Of a stretch of 61,804 nt of DNA, positions 2,916-54,587 are shown piece by piece. The notes under the pieces were generated by a model. It was not told where the DNA came from. It worked only from the letters and a program-made list of their open reading frames with translations, and did not search any database. The stretch's first letter is position 1. Each line of letters begins with the position of its first letter. The stretch covers positions 1 through 61,804 of the forward strand of contig JBDUBL010000004.1 of NCBI GenBank assembly GCA_040004125.1. The letters run 5' to 3'. Source of the stretch: Actinomycetota bacterium (lineage in GTDB: Bacteria > Actinomycetota > UBA4738 > HRBIN12). Both the position numbers and the translations under genes were made by a program.

Positions 2916-4019
2916 ATGACCGAGCGCACCGTCAACTTTTCCGCCGGCCCCGGCATCTTGCCACTCTCCGTGCTGCGCCAGGCACAGACAGACCTGATCT
3001 CGCTTCCCGGTGTCGGCGCCTCGGCGCTGGAGGTCTCGCATCGCGGCGCCTGGTTCACCGATGTGATCGCCGAGGCCGAAGCCAACCTGCGCGCGCTGCT
3101 CGCGATCCCGGCCACGCACCGAGTCCTGTTCACGCAGGGTGGGGCCACCATGCAGTTCACGATGGTCCCGATGAACCTGCTGCGCGCCACGGGGCGCCAC
3201 GCCGACTTCATCGTCACGGGATCCTGGGGCGCCAAGGCTTGGACCGAAGCCGCGAAGGAGGGCACGGCCCGGCTCGCCTGGACCGGCAAAGACGAGGGAT
3301 ACGTGCGCGCCCCCGAGACCGACGAGCTCCTGGCGTCGATCAACGCCAACCCCGCCTACGTCCACATCACGACGAACGAAACGATCCAAGGGGTCGAGTA
3401 CCCCGAGACGCCCATCGTGCCCGACGACGTCGCGCTCGTTGCCGACGGCTCGAGCGACTTCCTGTCGCGACCGATCGACGTCGGGGGCTACGCGGTGCTC
3501 TATGCAGGGGCGCAGAAGAACGCGGGGCCCGCCGGCGTCACGATCGTGATCGTGCGTGACGACGCGCTCGCACACGTCCCGGAGGGCCTGCCCGCGATGC
3601 TCGACTACCGGACCTACGCCGAGCACGGCTCGCTGTACAACACCCCGCCGGTGTTCTCGATCTACATCCTTCTGCTCGTGACGAGATGGCTCCGCGAGGA
3701 CATCGGTGGGCTCGAGGCGATGCACGAGCGCAATCGTGCGAAGGCGGCCCAGCTCTATGACGTGCTCGACGCCCTCCCCGCGTTCTACCGAGGCCATGCC
3801 GATCGCTCGTCGCGCTCGCTCATGAACGTCACGTTCCGCCTTCCGACCGTGGAGCTGGAACACGCGTTCATCGCCGAGGCCGCCGCCGCGGGCATGGTCG
3901 ACCTCGCGGGCCACCGCAGCGTCGGTGGCGTCCGCGCGTCGATCTACAACGCGATGCCGCTCGACGGCGTCGAACGCCTCGCCGCCTTCATGCGGGCATT
4001 CGCCGATGGCCGCAGCTAG
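2916..4019 (+). CDS. serC: Phosphoserine aminotransferase
   Basis: NFSAGP, SHR, NETIQGVE, GAQKNAGPAG, YNTPP, GHRSVGGVRASIYNA motifs. Confidence 0.93.
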   Translation: MTERTVNFSAGPGILPLSVLRQAQTDLISLPGVGASALEVSHRGAWFTDVIAEAEANLRALLAIPATHRVLFTQGGATMQFTMVPMNLLRATGRHADFIVTGSWGAKAWTEAAKEGTARLAWTGKDEGYVRAPETDELLASINANPAYVHITTNETIQGVEYPETPIVPDDVALVADGSSDFLSRPIDVGGYAVLYAGAQKNAGPAGVTIVIVRDDALAHVPEGLPAMLDYRTYAEHGSLYNTPPVFSIYILLLVTRWLREDIGGLEAMHERNRAKAAQLYDVLDALPAFYRGHADRSSRSLMNVTFRLPTVELEHAFIAEAAAAGMVDLAGHRSVGGVRASIYNAMPLDGVERLAAFMRAFADGRS

Positions 4020-4022
4020 GCA

Positions 4023-4906
4023 TCATGTGTCGGCCCCGGGCACGCCGTAGATCCCGGCCCATCCATTGCACGCGTACTTCCCGAACAAGAGGTCGCCTGC
4101 GTCCAGCGACATGGCGTTGTCGACATCCTGTCCCGTCGGGATCGAGGCAACCTTCGTCGCGCTCGCCGACAGGTCCGCGAGGGGTACCCGCCAGATCTTC
4201 ACGCCGATGCCGTGGTCTCATCGATCGCCGAGCCGTACTGCGGCTTGTTGTCGCTGGTCGAAGGTAGCTTCGCGACCCCCGGCGTATCGATGTTGTACAC
4301 GCGCACCGTGCACGTCTTCGAGCACACGGTCCACGTCGCGTAGTGCTCGCCGAGGAAGTCGCTAAGGAAGTATTGCCCGCTCTGCGACTGGATGCTCGCC
4401 ATCGTCGTCAGGGAGTTGTCGGACCGATCGAGCAGGTAGAGCTTCGCGTACCAGATGCCGTTGACTTTCTGCCACCGGAAGAACGACATGTACGCGGTGG
4501 AGATATGCGGGTCGAACTCCCAGGCACCGGTTTGCAAGGGTCGCGGGGTCGCCTGGCGCGTCATCGTGTCCAGGTTGAAGAACCGGATGTCCGAGTCGCC
4601 CGACGTGTATTCCTGATAAATGGCCGTGTTGGTGCCCGGGTCGAACCCACCTGTCCACCCCTTGGTCCCCGATGCGTTCATCTTCGTCGGTGTGCCGCCG
4701 GCGATCGGGCGCGCGAACACGTCCCAATGACGAGGGTGATCCTTGCTGTCGGCGGCGTAGAGCAGCCACGACGCGTTGCGATACGGCCCCGACTGACTCG
4801 CCGGGGGATCGAAGACTTTCACCGGGGTGATCGCGGCAAGCGCCGCCCAGGCCCCCGCCACGACGACGGTCAGCGCAAGCAGGATCGACAACCAACGACG
4901 CACCAT
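4023..4906 (-). pseudogene. Secreted TolB-like beta-repeat protein with C-terminal frameshift
   Basis: Signal peptide MVRRWLSILLALTVVVAGAWAALA; ORF stops at 4199, but a shifted frame from 4211 gives 62 protein-like codons (GIGVKIWRVPLADLS...GIYGVPGADT) ending at TGA 4023, 3 nt from the serC stop. Confidence 0.6.
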
Positions 4907-4963
4907 CAGAGCCTCCTCGTTGATGAGAGGAGCGTCCTCGCAGGTGATGCGCCAGGTCGCAAC

Positions 4964-6328
4964 TCAGGACGCGGCTCCGATCAGTTCGTCCGCCGCCCGG
5001 CCGAACACCTCGGTGTGCAGGTCGACGTCGTCGGCCGAGGTCGCCGGCGACATCAGCGCCATGTTGTGAAACGGGGTCATCAGGATGCCCCGGTTCAGCA
5101 GATACAGGTGGATGAACGCGTCGAGCTCGTCGTCTTGTCCGGCAGCCGCCTCGCTGCCGTTTCGTGCGCGATCTGCTCGGAACAGGTACTCGACGCGGCA
5201 CCCCAACCGCACGACGTGCCACGGCAGCCCGCGTGACTCGACCACCCCCCGGACGCCGTCCTCGAATCGCTCGCCGAGTACGATCATCCGCTCGAAGGCT
5301 TCATCGGTCATGACCTCGCCCAGCGTCGCGCGCATCGCCGCCAGCGACAGCGCGTTCCCGGCAAGCGTGCCGCCGACACCGCCCACATCGGCGTTCTTCC
5401 AATCGGTCTGGGCATACACACGGTCGCTCAACGCTTGGCTCATCCCGTAGGCGGCGCTCGGGATCCCGGCACCGAGGGTCTTGCCGATCGTGACGATGTC
5501 GGGCTGCAGGCCCCAGGCCCTCGTGCAGCCGCCCGGCCCCGCGCTGATCGTGTGCGTCTCGTCGATCAACAGGAGCGTGCCGTAGGTCGTGCACAGCGCG
5601 CGGACCGCTTCGTGATAGCCGGGTTCGGGCATGACGATGCCGATGTTCGTGAGCGCTGGCTCGAACATGCAGACCGCGACGTCTCCGATCGCGAGCGCGC
5701 GCTCGAGCCCGTCAAGGTCGTTGATCTCCACGACCCGCGTCGTCGCGGCAAGAGGCACCGGCATACCGACGTTCCCCTCCCGAGCCACAACCTCGCCCTG
5801 TGCATCCAGCGTGGCGAACGACTCGTCGACCGACCCGTGGTAACACCAGTTGTGCACCACCACCTTCGTCCGCCCGGTCACCTGGCGTGCCCACCGGATC
5901 GCGAACCGGTTCGCGTCGGTCGCCGTGAGCGTGAAGTTCCAGTACGGAAGTCCGAAGCGGCGAGCCATCTCGCGGCCGACCCACGCGGCGTCCTCGGTCG
6001 GCAGCATGAGCGTGATGCCCTTGGCGGATCGTTCGGCGATCGCATCGACGCTGACCTTCGGGGCGTGGCCGGCCATGCCGCCCGTGTCGCCCAGACAGAA
6101 GTCGACGAAGGCGTTGCCGTCGACATCGACGAAGCCGGCCCCCTCGGCTCGATCGACGAACACCGGGTAGTCCCCCGGCCAACGCGTCATCCAGTTCATC
6201 GGCACACCGAACAGAAGGGACTCCTTCGCATCTTCGGCGAGCTGCCCTGAGCGCGAGTGACGCTCGCGAAACGTCGCCCGTTCCCGTGCCATCAAGTCCT
6301 GAAGTCGCGTGCGATCGACGCCGGTCAT
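4964..6328 (-). CDS. Class III PLP aminotransferase (GSA-aminomutase-like family)
   Basis: DVDGNAFVDFCLGD, IDETHT, IGKTLGAG (PLP Lys), GGTLAGN; start MTGVDRT at 6328. Confidence 0.85.
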   Translation of the reverse strand: MTGVDRTRLQDLMARERATFRERHSRSGQLAEDAKESLLFGVPMNWMTRWPGDYPVFVDRAEGAGFVDVDGNAFVDFCLGDTGGMAGHAPKVSVDAIAERSAKGITLMLPTEDAAWVGREMARRFGLPYWNFTLTATDANRFAIRWARQVTGRTKVVVHNWCYHGSVDESFATLDAQGEVVAREGNVGMPVPLAATTRVVEINDLDGLERALAIGDVAVCMFEPALTNIGIVMPEPGYHEAVRALCTTYGTLLLIDETHTISAGPGGCTRAWGLQPDIVTIGKTLGAGIPSAAYGMSQALSDRVYAQTDWKNADVGGVGGTLAGNALSLAAMRATLGEVMTDEAFERMIVLGERFEDGVRGVVESRGLPWHVVRLGCRVEYLFRADRARNGSEAAAGQDDELDAFIHLYLLNRGILMTPFHNMALMSPATSADDVDLHTEVFGRAADELIGAAS

Positions 6329-42040: not shown

Positions 42041-44155
42041 TCAACCGCGAGGTTCGACGAGGGCGTCGACCGCAACGCACTCGAGGGGCGTGACGATCAC
42101 CGGGTTCACGTCGAGGGCCACAAGAAGATCGCCGAGGTCGTCCGCCAGCACAGACAGGCGCGAGACCGCTCGCGCGAGACCGCCCACGTCGGCGGGAGGC
42201 GCACCGCGCACGCCGGCGAGGATCGAGCTCATCGCAAGGCCGTCGATCAGCCGACGGGCCGCATCCTCGCCGATCGGTGCCAGCGCCAGGCGACGATCGC
42301 GCAGGACCTCGACGAGCACGCCGCCCGCGGCAACCAGCACCAGGGGGCCGAACGTCGGATCGACGATCACGCCAAGCGCGATCTCGACTCCTTCCGGCAC
42401 CATCGCCGCGACGGAAACCTCGGGGCCGAGACGACCGGCCACGTCGGCGTAGGCGTCCCGGACCGCGGCGCCGTTCGACAACCTGACGCGCACGCCGCCG
42501 ACGTCGGACTTGTGGGTGATGCCGGGCGTGGCCGTCTTGAGCACCACCGGGTACCCGACCGCCTCTGCGGCCGCGAACACCGCCTCGATCGTCGTGGCCG
42601 ATCGAGCCGCCACGACGGGCACGCCGTAATCGGCAAGGAGCGCAAGCCCGTCCAGCTCGGACAAGACCTCACCGGTCGCGAGACGCTCCCGCCATCGCGC
42701 ACGAACCGCTTCGTCCACCCGCGCGAGGGACGGGGCATTGGGACGGGTGCGCCATGTGGCGTCCGCCAACAGATGCGCCAGGGCGCGAAGCCCGGTGTCC
42801 GTCCCCTCGAGCACGGGGATACCCCGGTCACGCAGCATGCGCGCCTCATCCTGTGACACGGCGCTCGCCAGGTTCGACAACACGCAGAACGGCTTGTCGG
42901 TGCCCTCGAAGCTGTCGATCGCGATCTGGAGGTATCCCTCGTTGTACGGCTCGCCCTGGTGGGTCATGTCGATGCAGAAGACGCTGGCGCTGACCTCGGC
43001 GTCGTCCGCGAATGCCGCGAATGCCTCGAGGAAGATCGCGTCCCCGTCGATCCCCGTGCCCCACGCGTCGAGGGGGTTTTCGGCATCCATGCCGGGGTCG
43101 AGCACGCCTTGGATCCGCGCGATCGTGGCATGGCCGATCTTCGCGAACGGCACGTCGAGATCGGCAGCCAGGTCGACCACCATCGCGCGTTCGCCACCGC
43201 TGTCGTGGACGCTCGCGATCCCGCTTCCGCCGCGGGCACGGCGTGGCGAGGAGAACAGCTCCATCGTGTCGGCCATCTCATCGAGCGTGCGCACCTCGTG
43301 CACGCCGTAGGCGTCGAACAGCGCCTCGTACGCCCCGTGCTCCCCCGCGAGCGCGCCCGAGTGCGCGGTGACCATCGCACGCGAGCCCTCGGTACGCCCG
43401 ACCTTCATCGCCAAGACGGCCACCCCGCGCTCGGTCGCGCGCGCGAGCTGCGCCCGGAACCGCTCCGGGTCGCGCACGGTCTCGAGGAGCAGCGCCACCA
43501 CCCGGGTGCTCTCGAGTCCCAGCGCGTATTCCAGGTAATCGGCATGCGTGGTCACGACCTCCTGGCCGCTGGAGACCAGCAGGTTGAAACCGATCCCCCG
43601 GTCGGAAAAGGCGATCGCCGAGAACGCCGACCCGCTGTGCGACAGGAACGTCACCGGACCGTGGCGCAGGTGCTCCGGCGTGAGGAAGCCCGTCGCCCGA
43701 ACACGGGATTCCTGGTTCATGAAACCCATGCCGTTTCCGCCGCACAGCGCCATGTCGTTCGCCACGGCGATCGCGCACAGCCGTTCACGCAGACTCGGTC
43801 CGTCGGCCGGCTCCTCATACAACGACGAGAACGTGACCGCGCTACCGGCGCCGGCCGCAGCCGCATCGGTCAGCGCCTGCTCGACCCGCGCGTTGGCCAC
43901 GCCGAGGATCGCGAGGTCGACGGGCTCGGGGACATCGAGGATCGAGGGGTAACAGCGAAGACCGGCGACCTGATCGTAGCCCGGGTTCACTGGGTAGATC
44001 GTGCCGTCGAACCCCCCACGTCGGAGCTCGGCCAACATGGACTCGCCGAGCGACCCCGGCTTGATCGAGGCGCCGACGACGGCGATCGAACGCGCCTCCA
44101 ACATGCGCTGGATCGGCGTACGGCGGTCGCCGGTGTGCGAGGGCTCCTGTGCCAC
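42041..44155 (-). CDS. Acetate-CoA ligase (ADP-forming) family acyl-CoA synthetase
   Basis: IAVVGAS, YPVNP, SHSGS, KVGRTEG, HSGALAG, NPLD, HKSDVGGV, ALDVNP. Confidence 0.88.
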   Translation of the reverse strand: MAQEPSHTGDRRTPIQRMLEARSIAVVGASIKPGSLGESMLAELRRGGFDGTIYPVNPGYDQVAGLRCYPSILDVPEPVDLAILGVANARVEQALTDAAAAGAGSAVTFSSLYEEPADGPSLRERLCAIAVANDMALCGGNGMGFMNQESRVRATGFLTPEHLRHGPVTFLSHSGSAFSAIAFSDRGIGFNLLVSSGQEVVTTHADYLEYALGLESTRVVALLLETVRDPERFRAQLARATERGVAVLAMKVGRTEGSRAMVTAHSGALAGEHGAYEALFDAYGVHEVRTLDEMADTMELFSSPRRARGGSGIASVHDSGGERAMVVDLAADLDVPFAKIGHATIARIQGVLDPGMDAENPLDAWGTGIDGDAIFLEAFAAFADDAEVSASVFCIDMTHQGEPYNEGYLQIAIDSFEGTDKPFCVLSNLASAVSQDEARMLRDRGIPVLEGTDTGLRALAHLLADATWRTRPNAPSLARVDEAVRARWRERLATGEVLSELDGLALLADYGVPVVAARSATTIEAVFAAAEAVGYPVVLKTATPGITHKSDVGGVRVRLSNGAAVRDAYADVAGRLGPEVSVAAMVPEGVEIALGVIVDPTFGPLVLVAAGGVLVEVLRDRRLALAPIGEDAARRLIDGLAMSSILAGVRGAPPADVGGLARAVSRLSVLADDLGDLLVALDVNPVIVTPLECVAVDALVEPRG

Positions 44156-44158
44156 GCG

Positions 44159-45778
44159 CTACTTCTTCCCCAGCGCCTTGTCCTTCTTGGCCATGCGGAA
44201 GGCCTGCCAGCCGGGGATGCCGTTCACGCCGCCGCCGGCATGCGTCGCGCACGACCCGTGGTACAGGCCGCGCAACGGCGTTCGGTAATCCGCGTAGCCC
44301 GGCGCCGGGCGCATGTGAAAGAGCTGATCGACCGACAGCTCCCCGTGAAAGATGTTCCCGCCGATCAGGCCGAGGTCCTGTTCCATGTCGTAGGGCCCGA
44401 TCACCTGATAGTCGATGATCGAGTCGCGGAAGTTCGGCGCGAGCTCGTTGTAGCCGTCGAAGATCCGCTGTGCGTAGGCGTCGAGCTCGTCGCGGTGCGG
44501 CTCGGTGTTCCAGTCGTCGGGCACCCACTGCGTGAACATCGAGAACACGTGCGTGCCCTCGGGCGCGAGCTTCTTGTCCAACGTCGTCGGGATCGTGCCG
44601 TCGACGAACGGGGCGGTCGCGGCCCTGCGCTCCATGTGGGCGTCCTGGAAGGCACGTTCCGCGTACTCCGGGCTGAGACACAGCTCGACCGACCCGGTGT
44701 GGTGGGGCTGCTGGTCGGATCCCGGCATCGATGTGAAGTTCGGCAGCTCGCTGATCGCGACGTTTACCTTGACGACGCCGCTGCGGGTCTTCCACCGTTC
44801 GATATCCCACACGAAGTCGGCGGGCAGCTCGTACCGATCGATCAGATCGAGAAACGCGATTTTCGGATGGATCGTCGTGACGACGACCGGCGCGCGGAGT
44901 TCGCTCCCGTCTTCGAGCACGACCCCGACCGCGCGGCCGCCGCGCACCAGGATCTTCTGCACGCGGGCGTTGGTCCGGACCTCGCAGCCGAAGGCCTCCG
45001 CGGCCTTGCGGATCGAGTCCGACACCGCGCCCATCCCGCCCTGCTGGAAGCCCCAGGAGCCGAGGTGCCCGTCGCCGACGTCGCCGATCGAGTGGTGCAG
45101 CATCACGTAGGCCGTGCCGGGTTCGTCCGGACCTGCCCAGGTGCCGATCACACCGTTGACCGTGAGCATCGCCTTGATCGCGTCGGACTCGAACCAGTCG
45201 TTCAGCAGGTCGCTCACCGACATCGTGAACAGTCGCGTCACGTCGCCCACACCGCGCTCGCCCAGCTTGCGCATCTTCCATGCGGACTGCAGCGTCGCCA
45301 ATAGATCGCCCGGCTTCATCGAGCCGACACGAGGCGGGACCTGCAGCAGCAGCGGACCGAGCACGTCGGAGACGCCCTTGAGCCACTCCTCCCATTTCGG
45401 CAGGGTGTCGGCGTCCCTCTTCGAGAACTGGGCGATCGAGTCGTAGGACTTCTGGTGATCGTCGGCGTACACCGTGATCGCGCGCCCGTCGGGGAAGGCC
45501 TGGAAGTACGGGCCGAACGGCGTGACGTCGTAGCCGAACTGCTTGAGCTTGAGGTCCTTGATGATCGTCGGCGGCATCAACGACATCACGTAGGAATAGG
45601 TCGTGACGTTGATGTCGGGGTGGTCGGCGAACGGGGCGCTCGTGTCGGCCGCGCCGCCGGTCTTGTGGCGGCCCTCCAGCACGACGGTGCGCGCCCCCTC
45701 GCGGGCGAAGTAGGCGCCACTGGTGAGGCCGTTGTGGCCGCCGCCGATGATGATCGCGTCGTAGACGTTCGAAGCCAT
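44159..45778 (-). CDS. Phytoene-dehydrogenase-like (COG1233, PYROXD2-like) FAD oxidoreductase
   Basis: YDAIIIGGGHNGL, YSYVMSL, GGMGAVS, GGNIFHGELSVDQLFHMRP, GGGVNG. Confidence 0.85.
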   Translation of the reverse strand: MASNVYDAIIIGGGHNGLTSGAYFAREGARTVVLEGRHKTGGAADTSAPFADHPDINVTTYSYVMSLMPPTIIKDLKLKQFGYDVTPFGPYFQAFPDGRAITVYADDHQKSYDSIAQFSKRDADTLPKWEEWLKGVSDVLGPLLLQVPPRVGSMKPGDLLATLQSAWKMRKLGERGVGDVTRLFTMSVSDLLNDWFESDAIKAMLTVNGVIGTWAGPDEPGTAYVMLHHSIGDVGDGHLGSWGFQQGGMGAVSDSIRKAAEAFGCEVRTNARVQKILVRGGRAVGVVLEDGSELRAPVVVTTIHPKIAFLDLIDRYELPADFVWDIERWKTRSGVVKVNVAISELPNFTSMPGSDQQPHHTGSVELCLSPEYAERAFQDAHMERRAATAPFVDGTIPTTLDKKLAPEGTHVFSMFTQWVPDDWNTEPHRDELDAYAQRIFDGYNELAPNFRDSIIDYQVIGPYDMEQDLGLIGGNIFHGELSVDQLFHMRPAPGYADYRTPLRGLYHGSCATHAGGGVNGIPGWQAFRMAKKDKALGKK

Positions 45779-45825
45779 GGCGCTGGATCCTTCCCCTGAG
45801 TTGAGGCCCGTATCATGGACCCTGA

Positions 45826-45913
45826 CTGAACGACCAGTCAACTCACCCTCGGTGCCTACTCAGGGGTTGACGCCGCAGGTCAAACGGGTACAGTGCGTTG
45901 AACGGTGGGTCAA
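45826..45913. promoter_or_regulatory. Divergent promoter with two TGAACG-N4-GTCAA operator boxes
   Basis: CTGAACGACCAGTCAA 45826-45841 and TTGAACGGTGGGTCAA 45898-45913; TetR promoter TTGACG 45867 - N16 - TACAGT 45889. Confidence 0.6.
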
Positions 45914-45961
45914 TCCTGCCGTGGGAGCATCGTCCGGTTTGCCCCCTATTCAGGAGTGCGG

Positions 45962-46576
45962 ATGAGCACGAAGACCCGTCAGAAGCCCCAGCGCGACCGC
46001 CACCAGGAGATCTTGGAGGCGGCATCGCGAGTGATCACCGACCGCGGCCTGGCCGAAACGCGGATCCAGGACATCGCGGAAGTGTGCGGCGTGTCGCCGG
46101 GTCTGATCCTCTACTACTTCGAGTCCAAGGACCGGCTGCTCGCCGAGGCCTTGACCTACGCGAACGACCAGTTCTACCTGCGGACGGCGCGCGAGCTGCG
46201 GAAGATGCCGTCGGCGAAGGATCGCCTGGCACGCGTGATCGAGCTCTCGGTGCCCGGGCTGCTGCCCGAGTACGACCTACTCGACGAGTGGGCGCTGTGG
46301 CTCGAGATCTGGGTGCGCGCATTGCGCGACCCGGACATGGCTAAGGAGCGCGAGATGCTCGACCGTCGCTGGGTGCAATCGATCGCCGAGGTGATCCGTT
46401 ACGGGCGCCAGACGAGCGAGTTCCCGGCCGATGGCACCGACGCCGACGATCTAGCGATGCAATTCGGCGCGATGATGGACGGGCTCGCGATCCAGGTCAT
46501 GCTGAACGATACCGTCATGACCCCCAAGCGGATGTTCGACATCTGTACCGACGTGGCCACTCGACTGATCGGGTGA
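45962..46576 (+). CDS. TetR/AcrR family regulator (BetI-like C-terminus)
   Basis: ILEAASRVI...IQDIAEVCGVSPGLILYYFESKDRLL HTH; LWLEIW, MDGLAIQ. Confidence 0.9.
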   Translation: MSTKTRQKPQRDRHQEILEAASRVITDRGLAETRIQDIAEVCGVSPGLILYYFESKDRLLAEALTYANDQFYLRTARELRKMPSAKDRLARVIELSVPGLLPEYDLLDEWALWLEIWVRALRDPDMAKEREMLDRRWVQSIAEVIRYGRQTSEFPADGTDADDLAMQFGAMMDGLAIQVMLNDTVMTPKRMFDICTDVATRLIG

Positions 46577-46586
46577 GGGCGGCCGG

Positions 46587-47159
46587 CTACCGGCGCACGA
46601 GAACGTGCAGGATCGTGAGCGACAGGCTCGTCGCCAGCTCCACGAGCCGCTCATCGGCAACGCCGCCGAGCACCGATGTCATCTCGTCGACGACGAGACC
46701 GGCGTTGCGGTATTGCGTGAGTGCGCGCGCGGCCGTCTCCCCACTGGTGATCATGTCGTCGACGACGTGCACCACGCTGCCTGGTTCGAGCCGTTCGCCT
46801 ATCAACGCCTCGCCGTCGGGCGTCGCGTTGTCGCCGTAGCTGACGAGATGCCCCTTGGGCTCATCGCGCACATACACCGCGGGCAACCCGAGGGTCCACG
46901 CGAGCGCGGTCGCCAGCGGCATCGAGCCGACGTCCGCGGAACCGATCGCCTCCGTGATCGACGGCACGGTCCCGGCCATCGCCCTGATCACGACGCGGAA
47001 GTCCGCCGGGTGCCCGTACAGTCGCTTCACGTTGACCGAGCCGGTGGCCGGAGCGCCGGCGAGGCCGGGGACCTCGCTCGCCGTCCAGTAGCGGCGCAAC
47101 AAGGTGTCGATGTCGGTGCGGCCGTGCATCTGGATCACGGACTCGACCACGTCGCTCAT
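46587..47159 (-). CDS. Type I phosphoribosyltransferase, divergent orotate-PRTase-like
   Basis: VRDEPKGH loop and VHVVDDMITSGET PRPP-binding motif. Confidence 0.75.
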   Translation of the reverse strand: MSDVVESVIQMHGRTDIDTLLRRYWTASEVPGLAGAPATGSVNVKRLYGHPADFRVVIRAMAGTVPSITEAIGSADVGSMPLATALAWTLGLPAVYVRDEPKGHLVSYGDNATPDGEALIGERLEPGSVVHVVDDMITSGETAARALTQYRNAGLVVDEMTSVLGGVADERLVELATSLSLTILHVLVRR

Positions 47160-47236
47160 CCCGCGGCCAAGCCCGGCTCGACATCGTCATAGTCCGGTCG
47201 TTTTCGCACATGACCATGTTCCCAGGTCGGGGTCAC
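47156..47236 (-). other. 26-aa mini-ORF or gene remnant coupled at both ends
   Basis: GTG 47236 overlaps the GcvT-family stop (GTGA); TGA 47156 overlaps the PRTase ATG (ATGA). Confidence 0.4.
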
Positions 47237-49731
47237 ACGCGCCACGTGCGAGGCTCGTCGCGGAGCCGGGAGCCGGTCGGGTCGTAGAAGGGCTCGCGAC
47301 TGAGCTTTGCGCGCACCTTCGTGCCGCGGACCTCGACCGACACGGGCAGATCGGAGGCCAAGTCGCCGTGCACCCACGCGAGCCCGACCGCCGCGCCGAG
47401 ATGGTGGCCGTAGCCACCGCTCGTGACGTAACCGATCCGTTCCTTGCCGATCACGACAGGCTCGCCGTCCCACAGCATTGCCGCCGGGTCATCGAGCTTC
47501 ACGCTGACGAGCTCGCGCTCCCTCATCGCGCCCTGCAGCTCGACCAGTGCCGCCTTGCCGACGAAGTCCTCCTTGCCGAGGCGAACCGCGAACCCGAGTC
47601 CGACCGCATAGGGATCGTCGAGTACGCCGATGTCGTGTCCCCACGAACGGAAGCCTCGCTCCAAACGCAAGCCGTCGAACGCGAACGCGCCGGCATGTCG
47701 CAGGCCGTGCCCCAAGCCGGCCGCAACGACCTTGTCATACACGTCGGCGGCGAACTCGGTCGCCACGAGGAGTTCCCACCCGAGCTCGCCGGTGAACGAG
47801 ACACGCATGGCGATCGCCTTCGCCCAGCCGAGGTCGATCTCGCGGCAGGACAGGAAGGGAAACGCCTCGTTCGATAGATCCTGGTCGGTCAGCTCTGCGA
47901 GCAGCGCGCGGCTGCTCGGCCCGGCTAGATGCAGCGTCGCGTAGCCGCCGGTCACGTCCGTGACGGTGGCACCGGGCGGCAGTCCGTTGCGCAGCAGCAT
48001 CTGGGTCCGCCGTTGGTACAGCGTTGGGGCGAGCACGAGGAACCGATCCTCGCCGAGACGCGTCACCGTGGGATCCATCTCGATGCCGCCCCGATCGTTG
48101 CACACCAACGTGTAGACCACGCGCCCGATCGCGACGTCGATGTTGGACGTGCACATGCGCTGGAGCCCGGCGAGCGCTTCGGGCCCCTGCACGATGAACT
48201 TCGCGTAGGAGGAGAGGTCATACAGCGCGACGCCTGCACGCGTGGCCCGCATCTCCTCGCCGACCGGCGCGAACCACGACGGGCGATCGAAGTCGTAGAC
48301 CCACGGCGGCTCGCTACGGGTGCCGGGCTCGAACCACGCGGCGCGATCCCAGCCGGCGGCTTCACCGACGGCTGCTCCGGCCGCCCGAAGCTGCGGCAGC
48401 AGCGGCGAGCGGCGCACCCCCCGCCCCTCGTCGGGCTGGAGCGCCGGCCAGTGCATCGCGTAGAGTCGCCCGAGCGTTTCCCGGGTCTTGTCGTGCAGCC
48501 AGGCGCGGTTGTTCGCCCAACCGCCCATCCGGGCGATGTCGACCTCGGTCAGGTCCATCGTCGGGTGGCCCTCAACGATCCATTCCGCCAGGGCCTTGCC
48601 CACACCGGGGCCGTAGATGATGCCCTGAGAGTTCAGCCCGGCCGCCACGAACAGGTTCTTCACCTCTGGGAACTCGCCGATGTGGAAGTTCGCGTCGGGC
48701 GTGAAGCTCTCGGGCGCGCGCAGGTAGTGACGGAACCCGATGTCGCGCAGCACGGGCAGGCGCTCGCGCGCGGCCGACAGCACGGGCGCGAAGTGGTCCC
48801 AGTCCTCACCGAACTCCGCGAATCCGTCGATGGGAACGTCGGCCGGAGGTTTCGGCTTGCCCTTCGGCTCGAACGCGCCGAGCACCAGCGACCCGCCATG
48901 GTGCCGCACATAGAAGGAGCCGTCGAGGTCACGCAGGATCGGGAACCGCTCCTGGGCCCCCGCGGCCGGCTCCGTCATGACCCACACATGCTCGGCCGGG
49001 TAGAGCGCGACCGAGGTGCCGGCGAGCCTGGCCAGTTCGGAGGTCCACAGCCCCGCGGCCAGGACGACGGTGTCCGCCTCGATCGTGCCCTTGTCGGTCT
49101 CGACGCCGGTCACCGTGCCGCCCGCGTCTTTCCGGAACCCCGTCACCGTCACACCGAACGCGAACACGGCGCCCCGGTCGTGCGCTCCTTTGGCCAGCGC
49201 CAGCGTCGCGTCACCGGGGTTGACGGTCGCGTCGGTCGGCACGACGACCGCCCCCACGAGATCGTCCACCGTCGCGATCGGCCACCAGTCCGTGACCTGC
49301 GCCGGCTCCAGGACGCGGGCCTCCACGCCGAATTCGCGATGCATGTCGGCGCTGGCGAGCAACTCCTGCATGCGCCCCGGCGTGCGCGCGACAGTCAGCG
49401 ACCCCACGCGACGGAACCCGGTCTCGACGCCGGTCTCGGCCGGCAGCGACGCATAGAGGGAGGCATTGATGCGCGAGAGCTCGGTCAGTGCATGCGTCCC
49501 GCGGACTTGCGAGACGAGCCCGGCCGCGTGCCACGTCGTGCCGCCGGTCAGGCGCGTGCGTTCCACCACGAGCACGTCGGTGACGCCGAGCTTCGTGAGG
49601 TGATACGCGATCGAGGACCCGATGATCCCACCGCCGACGACCACGACGTGGGCGCGCGCGGGTGGCTCCGAGATCGGCTCCAGGATCGAGGAGTCGAGGT
49701 CGCGATTGGCCAGTCGCTCCGGGATCGTCAC
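47233..49731 (-). CDS. GcvT-family dimethylglycine/sarcosine dehydrogenase-like flavoprotein
   Basis: VVGGGIIG, GGTTWHAAGL (flavinylation His), APESFTPD, THF-binding and GcvT C-terminal domains; GTGA overlap with the arginase gene. Confidence 0.9.
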   Translation of the reverse strand: MTIPERLANRDLDSSILEPISEPPARAHVVVVGGGIIGSSIAYHLTKLGVTDVLVVERTRLTGGTTWHAAGLVSQVRGTHALTELSRINASLYASLPAETGVETGFRRVGSLTVARTPGRMQELLASADMHREFGVEARVLEPAQVTDWWPIATVDDLVGAVVVPTDATVNPGDATLALAKGAHDRGAVFAFGVTVTGFRKDAGGTVTGVETDKGTIEADTVVLAAGLWTSELARLAGTSVALYPAEHVWVMTEPAAGAQERFPILRDLDGSFYVRHHGGSLVLGAFEPKGKPKPPADVPIDGFAEFGEDWDHFAPVLSAARERLPVLRDIGFRHYLRAPESFTPDANFHIGEFPEVKNLFVAAGLNSQGIIYGPGVGKALAEWIVEGHPTMDLTEVDIARMGGWANNRAWLHDKTRETLGRLYAMHWPALQPDEGRGVRRSPLLPQLRAAGAAVGEAAGWDRAAWFEPGTRSEPPWVYDFDRPSWFAPVGEEMRATRAGVALYDLSSYAKFIVQGPEALAGLQRMCTSNIDVAIGRVVYTLVCNDRGGIEMDPTVTRLGEDRFLVLAPTLYQRRTQMLLRNGLPPGATVTDVTGGYATLHLAGPSSRALLAELTDQDLSNEAFPFLSCREIDLGWAKAIAMRVSFTGELGWELLVATEFAADVYDKVVAAGLGHGLRHAGAFAFDGLRLERGFRSWGHDIGVLDDPYAVGLGFAVRLGKEDFVGKAALVELQGAMRERELVSVKLDDPAAMLWDGEPVVIGKERIGYVTSGGYGHHLGAAVGLAWVHGDLASDLPVSVEVRGTKVRAKLSREPFYDPTGSRLRDEPRTWRV

Positions 49732-50621
49732 GGCAGCGCTCCCGCGTCGCCGATCGCGGTCCGGAGCACATCGGCGAGCGCCCGGCCGCATGCGCCGTCC
49801 GGGTCCTTGTCCGGGTTGTAGCAGCCGACGGAGAAGCCGACGAGCGCCGGCGCTCGAAGCAGGGGCGTGAGCAGATCGGTCAACTGGGTCAGATCGAGCC
49901 CGTTGGGATCGAGGTAGTCGGTGGCCGGAAACACCAGCTCGTCGAGAACGTCGACGTCGAGATGCACCCAGAGTCGGTCGGGATCCTGGCCGACACGGTC
50001 GGCAACCTGTTGACCGATCACGGCGGCGCCGTCGCGACGAACCTGGTCCGCATCGACGAACGTGAGTCCGGGGATCTCGTCGGGATGCGGGTGTCCGTGC
50101 GTGAGCGCCTCGTCGAGGTCGCGGGGCCCGAGCAGCGTCACGTCTTCGGGCCGCGACACTTCGCCGGCAGCATCGACCCACGTCGCGGGACCCCTCCCCA
50201 GGATCACCGAGATCGGCATGTCGGCCGCCTCGCCCGTCGGTGACGTCTCACCGTCGTACAGGTCGAGATGTCCGTCGAGGTACGCCAACCCGACCCGGCC
50301 GAAGGTGCGCTGGGCCCCGGCGAGTGCGCCGGGTAACAAGGCGCAGCAGCCACCCACGACGAACACCACAGCGCCTTGGGAGGTGAGGTCGGCAACGACG
50401 TCGGCCACCCGCCGGGTCGTATCCAGCACATCGTCGATGGCGATCACCCCCGATGCCGGATCACGGACGTCTCCGCGGATCCGCGCGTCGATGTCACCGC
50501 CGTCGGTTCGCCAGGGATCGTCCGCACGCGTGAAGGCGCGGAATGCCTGGGGCGCGTGCTCCGTGCCACCCGAGCGCCCGACCGAATCGATCGGGACGCC
50601 GAGCAGCGTGAACGTCGTCAT
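49728..50621 (-). CDS. Arginase/ureohydrolase family protein (atypical site)
   Basis: DGHLD and HLDVDVLD metal motifs; GGCC where GGDH is expected. Confidence 0.8.
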   Translation of the reverse strand: MTTFTLLGVPIDSVGRSGGTEHAPQAFRAFTRADDPWRTDGGDIDARIRGDVRDPASGVIAIDDVLDTTRRVADVVADLTSQGAVVFVVGGCCALLPGALAGAQRTFGRVGLAYLDGHLDLYDGETSPTGEAADMPISVILGRGPATWVDAAGEVSRPEDVTLLGPRDLDEALTHGHPHPDEIPGLTFVDADQVRRDGAAVIGQQVADRVGQDPDRLWVHLDVDVLDELVFPATDYLDPNGLDLTQLTDLLTPLLRAPALVGFSVGCYNPDKDPDGACGRALADVLRTAIGDAGALP

Positions 50622-50653
50622 GGCGCGCAAGGATAGGGCATCAGCCCGCGCGA

Positions 50654-51802
50654 CTACCCGAGGAGCGCGCGGCCCATCTGCTTGCGGTACCGCTCGTTGA
50701 AGTCGTACAGGAACCGGTCCTGGCGCGGATAGACACCGGTGGTGAACGCGCGCGACCCGACGCCCGTCTGCGCGCGCTGACAGATCTCCCAATCCTGCTT
50801 GGAGATCATGTCCCACAGCTCCACGACCGGTTCCGGCTTGAACAGCGCCGGGTCTGAGATCGTCTCGGGTCGGAACAGGTACTCGGACACGACGGTCGTG
50901 TGCCCCGGCCCGTTCGGGTAACCGATGTAGTACATGACGCAGTCCGGGTGGAGATTCAACAGTAGGTTCGGGAACTGGTAGGCCCCGAAATACATCGAGT
51001 AGTCCTCGGGCTGGAGGTCGGGGAACTTCGGCAGCTCGGACTCGCCGCTGATCGTGAAGCTGGTGGCGCCGTCCTTCATCCAGTTGCCGTCGTCGCGCGT
51101 TTCCTCGTCCCAGACCTCGCCGAAGCGAAAGAGCGGCACCACCTGCACCAGTTCGGGGTGCACCTGCGGACAGTGCAGACACTCGTTGTAGTTCTCCACA
51201 ACGATCTTCCAGTTCGCGGCGACCTCATAGACGATCCGCACGCCGACGCGGAGCTCGTCGAGCTTGAACCGGTCGAACATCGTCACGCTCTCCGCGCCCC
51301 CGTTGAGGAACTCCATGAACGAGCTCGGCTCGCTCGCCAGGCTCGCAAAGATGAAGCCGCCGTAGGTCTCGACCGCGAACCCGTGCAGCGGGTAATCGCC
51401 CCGGTCGAACAGCTCGCCTTCCTTCACGTTCGGCGAACCGATCAGCCGGCCGTTGAGGTCGTAGGCCCACGCGTGATAGGGGCACACGAACGCCTTCCGC
51501 ACGTTGCCCGCGGCCGGCTCGTCATCGAGGAACTTCGTGCCGCGATGCCTGCACACGTTGTAGAAGCCGTGCAGCTCTCCGTGGTCGTTGCGCACGAGGA
51601 AGACCGACTCCCCGGCAAGGTCCCGCACGATGTAGTCGCCGGGGTTGGGCAACTCCTCGGTGCGCCCGAGGCAGACCCAGTCGCCCCACCAGACTTTCTC
51701 GCGCTCCTCGTCGTAGATCGACGGCTCGGTGTAGTCGGCGCCCGTCAGGGTCGGGCGGGGCTTCCACTCGGTTTCGTCGTAGCGGATGGGTTGGGTCTGC
51801 AT
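50654..51802 (-). CDS. Rieske non-heme iron oxygenase alpha subunit (GbcA/Stc2/choline monooxygenase-like)
   Basis: CRHRG...CPYHAW Rieske ligands; NWKIVVENYNECLHCPQVHP; QDWEIC; GAGGAG RBS. Confidence 0.9.
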   Translation of the reverse strand: MQTQPIRYDETEWKPRPTLTGADYTEPSIYDEEREKVWWGDWVCLGRTEELPNPGDYIVRDLAGESVFLVRNDHGELHGFYNVCRHRGTKFLDDEPAAGNVRKAFVCPYHAWAYDLNGRLIGSPNVKEGELFDRGDYPLHGFAVETYGGFIFASLASEPSSFMEFLNGGAESVTMFDRFKLDELRVGVRIVYEVAANWKIVVENYNECLHCPQVHPELVQVVPLFRFGEVWDEETRDDGNWMKDGATSFTISGESELPKFPDLQPEDYSMYFGAYQFPNLLLNLHPDCVMYYIGYPNGPGHTTVVSEYLFRPETISDPALFKPEPVVELWDMISKQDWEICQRAQTGVGSRAFTTGVYPRQDRFLYDFNERYRKQMGRALLG

Positions 51803-51880
51803 CGTCGGCTCCTCGTCGGTCTCAGCCCAGGATAAGCGGTCGATCGCCACCTCCGGTAGACGGCCGATACGATATCCCGC

Positions 51881-52645
51881 ATGCTCGAGGTCGCCGGATT
51901 CAACATCACGCCGGTGAAGTCCACGGCGTTGCAGCGGCCCGATGTGCTGGACCTCCGTCGGGAAGGAGCCGTGGGTGACCGGCGGTTCCTGTTCATGCGA
52001 GACGATGGTTCACGCCTGTCCGGCATCTCCAAAGCATCCTTGATGCCGATCCAGGCGACCTACGACGCGGTGGGGGAACGCCTGACGCTGAGCTTCGCCG
52101 ACGGCGGGAGGGCGCAAGGCGATGCGCGGCCGACCGGTCCGGCCAAGACCGTCGCGCTCTATGACCGGACGATCTCGGTGCATGCGGTCGACGAGGGGCT
52201 GACGCGAGCGGTCCGCGCGCAGATCGGAGACGACACCGTCACGCTGGCTCGCGCCGACGAGCCGGATTCCGCGGGGGGCATCCATCGCGCCTCGATCCTG
52301 TCGCGCGCATCGATCCGGGACGTTGGACGACGCACCGGCGACGAGGCCCTCGATCCACGGCGGTTCCGGATGCTGATCGAGGTGGAGGGATGCCACCCGT
52401 TTGAGGAGGACACGTGGGAGGGCAAGCGTGTGCGCTTCGGCGATGCCGTCCTGCGGATCGGCGACCGGATGCCCCGCTGCGTCATGACCACCCTGGACCC
52501 CGACACCGGGGTGCAGAACGCGAGGGTCTTGGACGCGCTCGCGCAGCACCGAAAGACGGGCGAGAAGCTGTACCTCGGCATGTACGCGGAGGTCGAGCGG
52601 CCCGGCCTGATCCGGCGTGGCGACCCGGTGGCGGTGCTTGCCTAG
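51881..52645 (+). CDS. MOSC domain (mARC/YcbX-like) molybdoprotein
   Basis: TPVKS, GDRRF, DPRRFR, RCVMTT; ATG 7 nt after TACGAT. Confidence 0.85.
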   Translation: MLEVAGFNITPVKSTALQRPDVLDLRREGAVGDRRFLFMRDDGSRLSGISKASLMPIQATYDAVGERLTLSFADGGRAQGDARPTGPAKTVALYDRTISVHAVDEGLTRAVRAQIGDDTVTLARADEPDSAGGIHRASILSRASIRDVGRRTGDEALDPRRFRMLIEVEGCHPFEEDTWEGKRVRFGDAVLRIGDRMPRCVMTTLDPDTGVQNARVLDALAQHRKTGEKLYLGMYAEVERPGLIRRGDPVAVLA

Positions 52646-53067
52646 CCGGTCGTGAACGCGCGGAGCTCGGCGGCGTGCTCCTCGTAGTGTTCGAAGGTCT
52701 CGCCGGTGAACTCCTCGACCGCCGCATCGGTGAGCGTCGGCAAGGCTCGAAGCCCGGTACGCGCGCGCTCCCGGTTGTGCTCGGACCGCACGATGATCTC
52801 GTCCCAACTCATGCCGCGGCCATCTTCGATCACCTTGTCGTTGACGTCGTCCCAGTCCTGGTCTTCGAGCGTCTCACCGCGTGCGATCCGCTCGAGGGCG
52901 TCGCCCACGTAGCCCGCCCAGTAGCCGCAGTGCCAGACGAGATCCTGCGTCGACCAACCGGGGACGACCCCTTCCCGGTCACGCTGATCGTCGGGCACCG
53001 CCGCGAACGCATCCACGAACGCCAGCCACGCCTGATCCTCTCGCTGCAACAGTTCCTCGGTGTTCAT
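52642..53067 (-). CDS. DinB / maleylpyruvate-isomerase-like four-helix bundle protein
   Basis: GWSTQDLVWHC and EHYEEH motifs; GAGGGGG RBS. Confidence 0.75.
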   Translation of the reverse strand: MNTEELLQREDQAWLAFVDAFAAVPDDQRDREGVVPGWSTQDLVWHCGYWAGYVGDALERIARGETLEDQDWDDVNDKVIEDGRGMSWDEIIVRSEHNRERARTGLRALPTLTDAAVEEFTGETFEHYEEHAAELRAFTTG

Positions 53068-53246
53068 CGTGCCCCCTCGATCCCGGAGCCTCGACGATAC
53101 CTGCCTCGACGCGGGGCGGGATCGGGGCGTCAGATGACGCCGATCCTGGTCACTGCGCTCGCGATCGTGGTTCAGGAGTCGGCGCGACTGCCGTTCATCC
53201 AGCGCCTCAGTCGCCACCGCGCAGCCGCAGATCCGAGCAACGAGTC

Positions 53247-54587
53247 CTAGTCCGCGATCGCGCCGATGCAGTCCTCGAAAGCCTCCAGCGTGCGGTCGAC
53301 GTCCTCGTCGGTGTGTTGCGCGGACATCGAGAACTCCTCGAACCAGGCCGAGCCCATCGGGATCACGCCGCGGTTCAGCATGCCGAACCAGTAGTCGTCC
53401 CAGCGCGCCGTGTCGTTCTTGCACGCCTCGCGGAAGGTGTTCGGCTGCTCGTCGAGTCCGAAGAACAACCCACCAAGCGTGTTCACTTGCGTGACGTGCG
53501 CGGTGACACCCTTGTCCTTGAACACCTCGCGCATCCCGTCGGCGAGCCGCGTCGTGAGCCGCGTCATCTCCTTGTAGGTGTCGTCGGTCATCACCTTTGT
53601 CAGACACGCGAGCCCCGCGGCCATCGCCAGAGGGTTCGCGTTGTACGTGCCGAAGTGGACCATCGACCCGAGCGGCGTGACGTGTTCCATCAGCTCGCGA
53701 CGCCCGCCGAACGCGCCGACCGGCACGCCGCCACCGATCGCCTTTGCCAGCGTGACGAGGTCGCCCTTGACTCCCCAGTACTCGGTCGCCCCGCCCGGAG
53801 CGATCCGGCAGCCGAGCTTGACCTCGTCCATGATCAGCACCGAGCCCTTGGCGGTGCACAGCGCACGCACCGCCTCGAGGTAGCCGGGCAACGGTGGGAT
53901 CACACCGCCGTTGGTCATCGCCGGTTCGATGATCACCCCGGCGACATCGCCGTCGTGCTCGTCGAAGGCGCGCTGCATCATGTCGATGTCGTTGAACGAC
54001 ACCACCGTCGTGTACTCCGTCGAGGCGGGCAGCAGCCCGGCCGAATCGGCGGTGGCGTTCGGGTGGGTGTCGGGGCCGGCCGCATCGGCCGGGGCGCCGC
54101 CGATCGAGACCAAGAGGTGGTCGGTCCCCCCGTGATACTGGCCCTCGATCTTCACGATCGTCTTGCGCCCGGTCGCGGCGCGCGCCAGCCGGATCGCGGT
54201 CTGGGTCGCCTCCACGCCCGACTGCGTGAAGCGGATCATGTCGATCGAGCCCGGGTAGCGACGGATCACTTCTTCGGCCAGCATGGCGGCGAGCTCGGTC
54301 GGCATGCCGTAGAGCGTGCCGTGCGCGGCCTGCTTCTGGATCGCCTCGACGATGATCGGGTTCGCGTGTCCGGCGACCATCGCCGCGTAGCACAGCGAGT
54401 AGTCGATGTACTCGTTGCCGTCGAGGTCCCAGACGCGCGAACCCTTCGAGTCGCCCACGTACAACGGGTAGGGCGGCTTGAACTGGATCGCGCTGCCGAC
54501 GCCACCGGGGATCACCTTGGCGGCCCGCTCCCAGGCGACCTTCCCCTTCGGGGTCCTGCGCTCGTACTCCGCAACGCCGTCGGTCAT
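53247..54587 (-). CDS. Class III PLP aminotransferase, HemL-like paralog
   Basis: WDLDGNEYIDY, FTQSGVEA, MDEVK, LAKAIGGGVPVGAFGG, GTYNANPL. Confidence 0.85.
   Translation of the reverse strand: MTDGVAEYERRTPKGKVAWERAAKVIPGGVGSAIQFKPPYPLYVGDSKGSRVWDLDGNEYIDYSLCYAAMVAGHANPIIVEAIQKQAAHGTLYGMPTELAAMLAEEVIRRYPGSIDMIRFTQSGVEATQTAIRLARAATGRKTIVKIEGQYHGGTDHLLVSIGGAPADAAGPDTHPNATADSAGLLPASTEYTTVVSFNDIDMMQRAFDEHDGDVAGVIIEPAMTNGGVIPPLPGYLEAVRALCTAKGSVLIMDEVKLGCRIAPGGATEYWGVKGDLVTLAKAIGGGVPVGAFGGRRELMEHVTPLGSMVHFGTYNANPLAMAAGLACLTKVMTDDTYKEMTRLTTRLADGMREVFKDKGVTAHVTQVNTLGGLFFGLDEQPNTFREACKNDTARWDDYWFGMLNRGVIPMGSAWFEEFSMSAQHTDEDVDRTLEAFEDCIGAIAD

Follow-up and report, generated by a model that had tools for sequence, protein, structure and literature searches.

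Introduction

Rieske oxygenases that act on quaternary ammonium substrates constitute group V, which is split into the subgroups Va and Vb (Quareshy et al., PMC7948474). Enzymes of group Va, such as CntA, choline monooxygenase and OxyBAC, carry Tyr or Phe at position 203, which makes a cation-pi contact, and enzymes of group Vb, such as Stc2 and GbcA/BmoA, carry Asn at 203, place the substrate carboxylate on the iron and carry out demethylation (PMC7948474). Some group V enzymes are also marked by a Cys-X-X-Cys pair beside the iron (PMC10952381). Here we analyze a Rieske oxygenase gene and the three genes that follow it on the minus strand, from position 51802 to 46587, in a 61,804-nucleotide (nt) stretch of DNA (hereafter, the window). 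The window corresponds to contig C64 in a metagenome-assembled genome (2.14 Mb, 80% complete) from an uncultured soil actinomycete, and its G+C content is 66-71%.

We propose, with moderate confidence, that the four genes form one co-transcribed operon, the core of which, a group Va Rieske oxygenase and a flavoprotein resembling dimethylglycine dehydrogenase (DMGDH), would degrade a quaternary or poly-methylated ammonium compound other than glycine betaine. A preliminary description had read the run as a betaine-like demethylation route with extra steps; the methylated-amine oxidation operon in that reading stands, and the extra steps, assigned to an arginase and a phosphoribosyltransferase (PRTase), do not. 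Genes were called by open reading frame (ORF) calling guided by GC3 together with domain scans (Pfam and NCBIfam), and the gene contexts of relatives were rebuilt from their loci by ORF calling and tblastn.

Results

Group Va signature of the Rieske oxygenase

The Rieske cluster ligands of the oxygenase are C84, H86, C107 and H110 (CxH...CxxH). Its motif N204-Y205-N-E207-C208-L-H210-C211, together with H215, lies opposite N-Y203-M-E205-C206-Y-H208-C209 of CntA, with E207, C208 and C211 corresponding to E205, C206 and C209. According to the residue alignment, H210 and H215 align with the iron histidines of CntA, and D337, which aligns with the Asp of Stc2, is probably the third Fe ligand. Thus the cluster ligands, the iron site, the bridging Glu and the Cys-X-X-Cys pair of group V are all present, and the residue at CntA position 203 is the Tyr of group Va and not the Asn of group Vb; Stc2, 4qup and 3n0q carry N-N-R-E-C where the window enzyme has Tyr205. 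The sequence NYNECLHC is invariant in the window enzyme and all 25+ actinobacterial orthologs.

The best solved relative is the carnitine monooxygenase CntA of Acinetobacter baumannii (PDB 6y8j, 144.6 bits, compared with 117 bits for the stachydrine demethylase Stc2), whose alignment covers residues 22-298 only and reaches further into the catalytic domain than that of Stc2. The best NCBIfam match is GbcA, with 186.6 bits where the cut-off is 670; it is confined to the N-terminal half (positions 33-229 of 420), and some database sources label relatives of the enzyme as 'glycine betaine catabolism A'. Tyr205 and the low GbcA score contradict the earlier assignment of the enzyme to the GbcA/Stc2 type, and judging from these residues it is a CntA-like, group Va oxygenase. 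This signature makes it more likely that the first oxidation targets a carbon of the chain or ring adjacent to the charged nitrogen than that it removes a methyl group in the manner of GbcA.

Two observations concern more distant Rieske genes. Proteobacterial Rieske genes that adjoin DMGDH-like genes (L045 and L048) are of group Vb (NNREC). Homologs of 600-630 residues (P0290, P0292, P0301, P0309, P0313, P0327, P0350, P0351 and P0377) have an N-terminal extension of about 230 residues, and their oxygenase part begins near residue 230.

The DMGDH-like flavoprotein and a separate glycine betaine locus

The flavoprotein matches over its full length rat DMGDH (PDB 4pab, 433 bits) and Arthrobacter globiformis dimethylglycine oxidase (DMGO; 1pj5, 392 bits). 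It contains GTTWH68AAG, which we take to be the covalent-FAD histidine motif of the DMGDH/DMGO family, and this motif and the domain architecture place it in the DMGDH/DMGO/sarcosine dehydrogenase (SARDH) family. It is not the DMGO ortholog, since among the five DMGDH-like paralogs of the genome the best match to 1pj5 is another one, on contig C32 (742 bits). Genomes of the bacterial family sampled here (f1) hold up to seven DMGDH-like paralogs per ~3 Mb, and many of these matches contain one in-frame stop (TGA, TAG or TAA), probably where alignments run past gene ends.

Near the DMGO ortholog, C32 encodes an OpuAC-type binding protein with an ABC permease and ATPase, a GMC oxidoreductase, SoxA and SoxG, and in addition a corrinoid protein, a pterin-binding methyltransferase, a RACo activase and an MTHFR-like protein. 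This region (C32:1-19510; L139 and L141) is canonical-looking, that is, it resembles the choline/glycine betaine/dimethylglycine/sarcosine locus to be expected. Given its corrinoid components, betaine may be demethylated here with the help of cobalamin, in an aerobic-type actinomycete; an MttB-family gene was not identified in the part of C32 that was read. At one contig end (C66:2-2349; L081), another RACo-like activase, which has a Fer2 domain, is encoded beside a pterin-binding methyltransferase. Because the DMGO ortholog and a betaine-type locus lie on C32, the window operon would be a second route. The former claim that the substrate is not plain glycine betaine is thus probably right, on grounds other than those first given, namely the DMGO ortholog, the transporter and SoxA/SoxG of C32.

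Operon layout and regulation

The four genes were confirmed on the minus strand at the positions that had been described, and their spacing is operon-like (Table 1): 32 nt between the Rieske and arginase-fold genes, a 4-nt overlap between the arginase-fold and DMGDH-like genes, where the GTG start of the latter overlaps the stop of the former (GTGA), and 73 nt before the PRTase gene. No terminator-like site was found in 45700-53300. Most likely, then, the run is a real operon, as far as gene arrangement can tell. The TetR gene is convergent with the end of the operon and divergent from a second operon, in which the gene of an acyl-CoA synthetase (CoA ligase) begins 3 nt downstream of that of a COG1233 flavoprotein.

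Table 1. Genes and intergenic region of the run and its surroundings (positions in the window)
Feature	Position	Strand	Size and basis
Rieske oxygenase, alpha subunit only	50654..51802	-	382 aa; Pfam Rieske + Ring_hydroxyl_A; NCBIfam
Arginase-fold protein, Cys-substituted subfamily	49728..50621	-	297 aa; PF00491
DMGDH/DMGO-family flavoprotein, fused GcvT domains	47233..49731	-	832 aa; DAO + FAO_M + GCV_T + GCV_T_C
Rare type-I PRTase-fold protein resembling orotate phosphoribosyltransferase (OPRT), last operon gene	46587..47159	-	190 aa; no Pfam hit
Presumed operon promoter region, 78-bp divergent intergenic Rieske/MOSC	51803..51880	.	inferred
MOSC-domain protein, divergent from operon	51881..52645	+	254 aa; Pfam MOSC + MOSC_N
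BetI-like TetR regulator	45905..46576	+	Pfam TetR_N + TetR_C_6; NCBIfam BetI 86.8 bits, below cut-off
PYROXD2/CrtO-like COG1233 flavoprotein	44159..45841	-	domains + synteny
ADP-forming acyl-CoA synthetase	42041..44155	-	Pfam ATP-grasp_5, Succ_CoA_lig, CoA_binding; NCBIfam

An operator-like repeat, TGAACG-N4-GTCAA, has exact copies only at 45827-45841 and 45899-45913, in the TetR/PYROXD2-like intergenic region, and its total in the window is within chance. No copy with up to 2 mismatches lies upstream of the Rieske operon, and the 78-bp intergenic region contains neither a sigma-70 consensus match nor a TetR-operator-like repeat. Control of the run by the BetI-like TetR is therefore not supported by any evidence. 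In relatives outside the genus, an AsnC/Lrp regulator gene stands divergent from the Rieske gene in place of the MOSC gene.

These results bear on the simplest explanation, that the operon is an ordinary route from glycine betaine through dimethylglycine to sarcosine with two unrelated passengers. GbcA as the best NCBIfam match, the 'glycine betaine catabolism A' label of relatives, the DMGDH architecture of the flavoprotein and the nearby BetI-like regulator are all what such a route would show. Nevertheless, we regard it as very improbable, because the GbcA match falls far below its cut-off and covers only half the protein, Tyr replaces the Asn of group Vb, C32 carries the DMGO ortholog together with a betaine-type transporter and sarcosine oxidase, and the Rieske operon has no operator-like repeat upstream.

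Conservation of the run

Rieske orthologs with at least 67% identity are found only in uncultured Actinomycetota. Among the closest relatives, a DMGDH-like and/or arginase-like gene follows the Rieske ortholog in 17 of the 22 loci with enough flank: an arginase-fold gene lies downstream in 15 loci and a DMGDH-like gene in 11-12, and in 5 loci, where the Rieske ortholog stands among signalling genes, there is neither. For a wider comparison we used a family sample of 60 evenly drawn genomes, ~42 of which have a Rieske ortholog. One or both partners follow the Rieske gene in 14 of these ~42; a DMGDH-like ortholog adjoins it or lies near it in 10, from several genera, an arginase-fold gene in 7, and all three genes are together in 3 (G074, G183 and G412), the last three counts resting partly on G412, which is flagged as unpublished. 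This result shows that the genes are grouped more than by chance. Of the gene set that had been expected to be conserved together, the Rieske/DMGDH-like pair recurs, the arginase-like gene does so less often, and the PRTase gene occurs in none of the 60 genomes.

In most relatives, a CoA-acylating methylmalonate-semialdehyde dehydrogenase gene (TIGR01722, 704 bits) lies just upstream of the Rieske gene, following an acyl-CoA dehydrogenase gene as in valine catabolism. A stretch of 2.37 kb, which in L028, the closest locus, carries this dehydrogenase gene, is missing from the window at ~53107, between the MOSC gene (ending at 52645) and an aminotransferase gene (53247), and no remnant of it was detected. 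We had considered this upstream aldehyde dehydrogenase of the relatives as BetB and excluded it, since it is the CoA-acylating enzyme, deleted here. In L028 itself most genes, including those for the Rieske, arginase-fold, DMGDH-like and COG1233 proteins and the CoA ligase, are split into 2-3 tblastn pieces in different frames, a pattern that suggests frameshift errors from long-read assembly and not pseudogenes.

The dehydrogenase is relevant to the main alternative to the proposed operon function, in which the Rieske enzyme would act only as a CntA-like lyase, cleaving a betaine with a short chain, such as those of the carnitine, gamma-butyrobetaine or beta-alanine betaine type, into trimethylamine and a semialdehyde, with its neighbours kept by inherited synteny. 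A dehydrogenase of (methyl)malonate semialdehyde next to the oxygenase would suit such a reaction, as would CntA as the closest solved relative, with an alignment longer in the catalytic domain than that of Stc2, and the ~25 of 42 orthologs that have no DMGDH-like or arginase-like neighbour. However, the dehydrogenase gene is cleanly missing here and belongs to a valine-catabolism pattern elsewhere, the Rieske/DMGDH-like adjacency recurs in several genera, and no Tdm-type gene was found apart from a weak FMO-like fragment at a contig end of this 80%-complete genome. We consider this alternative possible, although rather unlikely.

Electron supply

On the contig, no Rieske domain occurs apart from that of the oxygenase, and a single Fer2 domain is present, in the small subunit of a molybdenum hydroxylase. 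This domain scan bears out the earlier remark that no Rieske reductase or ferredoxin is in the window. A search for reductases across the genome, which the preliminary description had proposed, found no FNR-type NAD_binding_1 (PF00175) domain in the 80% of the genome that is covered and identified a pair of overlapping genes on contig C69, encoding a 103-aa Rieske ferredoxin and a ferredoxin reductase of 414 aa (Pyr_redox_2/Reductase_C), of which the assembly contains no other. Taking the lack of an FNR-type reductase and the C69 pair together, a three-component system supplied from C69 is the simplest reading.

The arginase-fold protein

The arginase-fold protein matches PF00491 with about 104-106 bits, and its AlphaFold2 model (pLDDT 93.5) superimposes on Bacillus caldovelox arginase (PDB 2cev) with a TM-score of 0.88 at ~24% identity. 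The metal motifs DxHxD and DxDxxD are retained (D116/H118/D120 and D222/D224), so that 5 of the 6 arginase metal ligands are kept. At the other diagnostic positions, a profile alignment to the arginases 2eiv and 6dkt places Cys93 at His101, Ala133 at His141 and Cys267 at Glu277; the protein thus lacks the His101 of GGDHS and the Glu277 of ExNP/ExSP, both expected of a ureohydrolase, and the His141 expected of an arginase. The sequence GGCC at residues 90-93, in place of GGDH, is invariant in an alignment of 23 relatives that are 57-80% identical to the query. Canonical ureohydrolase identity is ruled out by the replacement of the three residues in all aligned members, and ureohydrolase activity is doubtful for the same reason. 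The genome has a canonical ureohydrolase on C25, where a family member keeps GGDH, DAHLD and EVSP and matches PF00491 with 309 bits.

The Cys-substituted family comprises 2,623 matches, mostly from Actinomycetota; a look-up in the ESM Atlas returned 'arginase family' only. In 17 loci outside the bacterial family, no informative recurrent partner was found, and none was a Rieske or DMGDH gene; the neighbours were peroxiredoxin (3), SDR (3), pirin, EamA, MiaB and RNase Y. Within the family, the arginase-fold gene is directly coupled either to the DMGDH-like gene or, in loci lacking that gene, to the Rieske gene, and in G387 (L114) it is coupled to a DMGDH-like gene without a Rieske ortholog. Coupling in two gene orders points to co-expression and suggests that the gene is more than a passenger. 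The extra ureohydrolase step proposed for an 'arginase-like enzyme' is nevertheless not supported, given the replaced residues and the unrelated contexts outside the family.

The PRTase

The product of the last gene has no PF00156 match and reaches only 39.7 bits with NCBIfam pyrE, against a cut-off of 106.8. It contains the phosphoribosyl pyrophosphate (PRPP) loop, VVHVVDDMITSGET, which in type I PRTases is an acidic pair and then T/S-G-x-T, and much of the OPRT flexible-loop pattern, and it matches the OPRT domain of PDB 3qw4 (E 3.6e-8). Only 13 related proteins were found among 5.8 billion, all from one narrow genus-level clade. In five metagenome loci and L028, the gene follows a DMGDH-like ortholog (85-88% identical) wherever the upstream flank exists and precedes the TetR gene wherever the downstream flank exists. 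Its slot in other genera is taken, on the opposite strand, by genes for a RihA-like nucleoside hydrolase and a ribokinase. By this distribution the PRTase is a rare, recent, lineage-specific addition, and its confinement to a genus-level clade, without a single case in the 60 family genomes, tells against its being an extra step of the pathway.

The four genes could also be read as a single linear pathway for a methylated guanidino or heterocyclic amine, in which the Rieske and DMGDH-like enzymes demethylate, the arginase-like enzyme frees urea and the PRTase ribosylates the base. Such a route would account for the tight coupling of the four genes, the two gene orders in which the arginase-fold gene is coupled to the Rieske or DMGDH-like gene, the place of the PRTase directly after the DMGDH-like ortholog in every locus with a PRTase and an upstream flank, the five arginase metal ligands and the nucleoside hydrolase and ribokinase in the PRTase slot of relatives. 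We nonetheless consider it improbable: every member of the arginase-fold family carries other residues in place of His101, His141 and Glu277, which binds guanidinium, arginase-fold relatives outside family f1 have no Rieske/DMGDH link, none of the 60 family genomes has the PRTase, the Rieske enzyme bears a quaternary-ammonium signature, and a canonical ureohydrolase lies on C25. Since the arginase residues are lost and the PRTase is lineage-specific, the guanidino or heterocyclic substrate that had been suggested receives no positive support.

The neighboring PYROXD2-like module

The steadiest neighbors of the run are the TetR gene, the gene for the PYROXD2-like flavoprotein (82-96% identity in relatives) and that for the CoA ligase. 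In a proteobacterial metagenome-assembled genome (L031), a Va-type Rieske gene is followed directly by a COG1233 flavoprotein gene; the same segment (L031:9947-15873) continues with a DAO flavoprotein and a BBE/FAD_binding_4 oxidase, and an MFS transporter gene lies upstream. A COG1233 flavoprotein also follows a Rieske homolog in L054, which the motif scan did not type as Va or Vb, and in L026 a Rieske homolog (49% identical) and then a free-standing GcvT protein are encoded between COG1233 flavoproteins. A single ORF of 1061 aa (L069:9551-12736) joins Rieske and COG1233 parts through a linker of ~24 residues. No second fusion of this kind was present among the best 150 matches (HMMER, 1.84 billion representatives); the fusion probably reflects the loss of a stop codon or arose only once, and we did not use it as evidence.

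The genome has five more PYROXD2/CrtO-like paralogs, with 33-55% identity, on C69, C25, C83 and C72, and the C69 paralog (4016-5605) is ~4.4 kb from the Rieske ferredoxin/reductase pair. In the literature, nothing relevant was found on Rieske enzymes with PYROXD2, or on Rieske enzymes with a ureohydrolase and guanidino compounds.

Discussion

Proposed pathway

In the pathway that we favor, the Rieske oxygenase would hold the charged nitrogen of its substrate by a cation-pi contact with Tyr205, as the family signature predicts, and would hydroxylate the carbon beside the nitrogen, most likely leading to C-N cleavage into an aldehyde and a tertiary amine; N-demethylation in this first step seems less likely. 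The DMGDH-like enzyme, considering its domain architecture, would then oxidize the remaining N-methyl groups and transfer the one-carbon units to tetrahydrofolate. Electrons would be delivered by the Rieske-type ferredoxin and FAD reductase of C69 and not by a GbcB/CntB-type reductase. The arginase-fold and PRTase-fold proteins would be co-expressed, lineage-restricted accessories, and the PYROXD2-like flavoprotein/CoA-ligase operon beside the BetI-like TetR is probably part of one metabolic module with them. As candidate substrates, cyclic or mixed quaternary amines are consistent with a Va oxygenase that acts before an N,N-dimethyl-amine dehydrogenase.

Several points weigh against this pathway. 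The Va signature predicts how a substrate is bound and may not strictly predict the reaction. If trimethylamine were released, the DMGDH-like enzyme would be left without an obvious substrate, and no Tdm (DUF1989) gene for trimethylamine use was found in the 80%-complete genome, where the only trace is the FMO-like fragment noted above. The translational coupling of the arginase-fold gene in two gene orders suggests that it is not a mere passenger. In ~25 of the 42 family genomes with a Rieske ortholog neither partner adjoins it, and the conservation that is seen may in part be synteny inherited within one family.

Two further readings are more speculative. The Va Rieske and DMGDH-like enzymes could constitute an undescribed route in which a cyclic or mixed quaternary amine, for example of the proline-betaine type, is opened by C-N cleavage and the resulting N,N-dimethyl amino acid is demethylated, and the GGCC arginase-fold family could be a new type of metal- or thiol-dependent hydrolase that acts on an intermediate of such routes and is not a ureohydrolase. 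We put these readings forward only tentatively, their probability being low.

Significance

Genomes of the family each hold several CntA/GbcA-type Rieske oxygenases, and together with the many DMGDH-like paralogs this makes methylated amines look like a main food source of these bacteria. To our knowledge, most of these Rieske and DMGDH-like enzymes have no known substrate. The Tyr or Asn at CntA position 203 offers a cheap sequence signature with which the label 'GbcA' can be corrected, and the present case illustrates that a classical glycine betaine cluster can coexist in one genome with another route that differs from it. In addition, more than 2,600 'arginase family proteins' are very likely mis-annotated, since the residues that make an arginase are absent. 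The operon also adds one more context for PYROXD2-like flavoproteins; we know of no reaction for the human counterpart, PYROXD2.

Comparison with known systems

The Rieske enzyme shares with CntA and group Va the cluster ligands, the bridging Glu, the Cys-X-X-Cys pair, the Tyr (Y205 = Y203) and a length of ~380 aa. It differs in that its match to CntA is partial, no CntB/GbcB-type reductase is nearby or was found in the genome, and, unlike CntA, it has a DMGDH-like flavoprotein as its partner. With the glycine betaine monooxygenase GbcA/BmoA and with Stc2 it has in common the group V framework, the Glu and Cys pair and the operon logic of an oxygenase followed by an N-methyl dehydrogenase, whereas these Vb enzymes have Asn at the position of its Tyr.

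The flavoprotein has a four-domain architecture identical to that of DMGO (1pj5) and DMGDH (4pab), aligns with them from end to end and has the FAD-His motif, but is a paralog of DMGO and not its ortholog. Similarly, the arginase-fold protein resembles arginase 2cev in fold and in the DxHxD and DxDxxD motifs, and its family differs in having GGCC for GGDH, Ala for His141 and Cys for Glu277. As for the module of L026, the PYROXD2-like gene of the window, at a distance of 5 kb, is conserved together with the run, which makes the two arrangements alike; in the window, however, a DAO-type flavoprotein carries the folate domain as a fusion and the PYROXD2-like gene belongs to a separate CoA-ligase operon.

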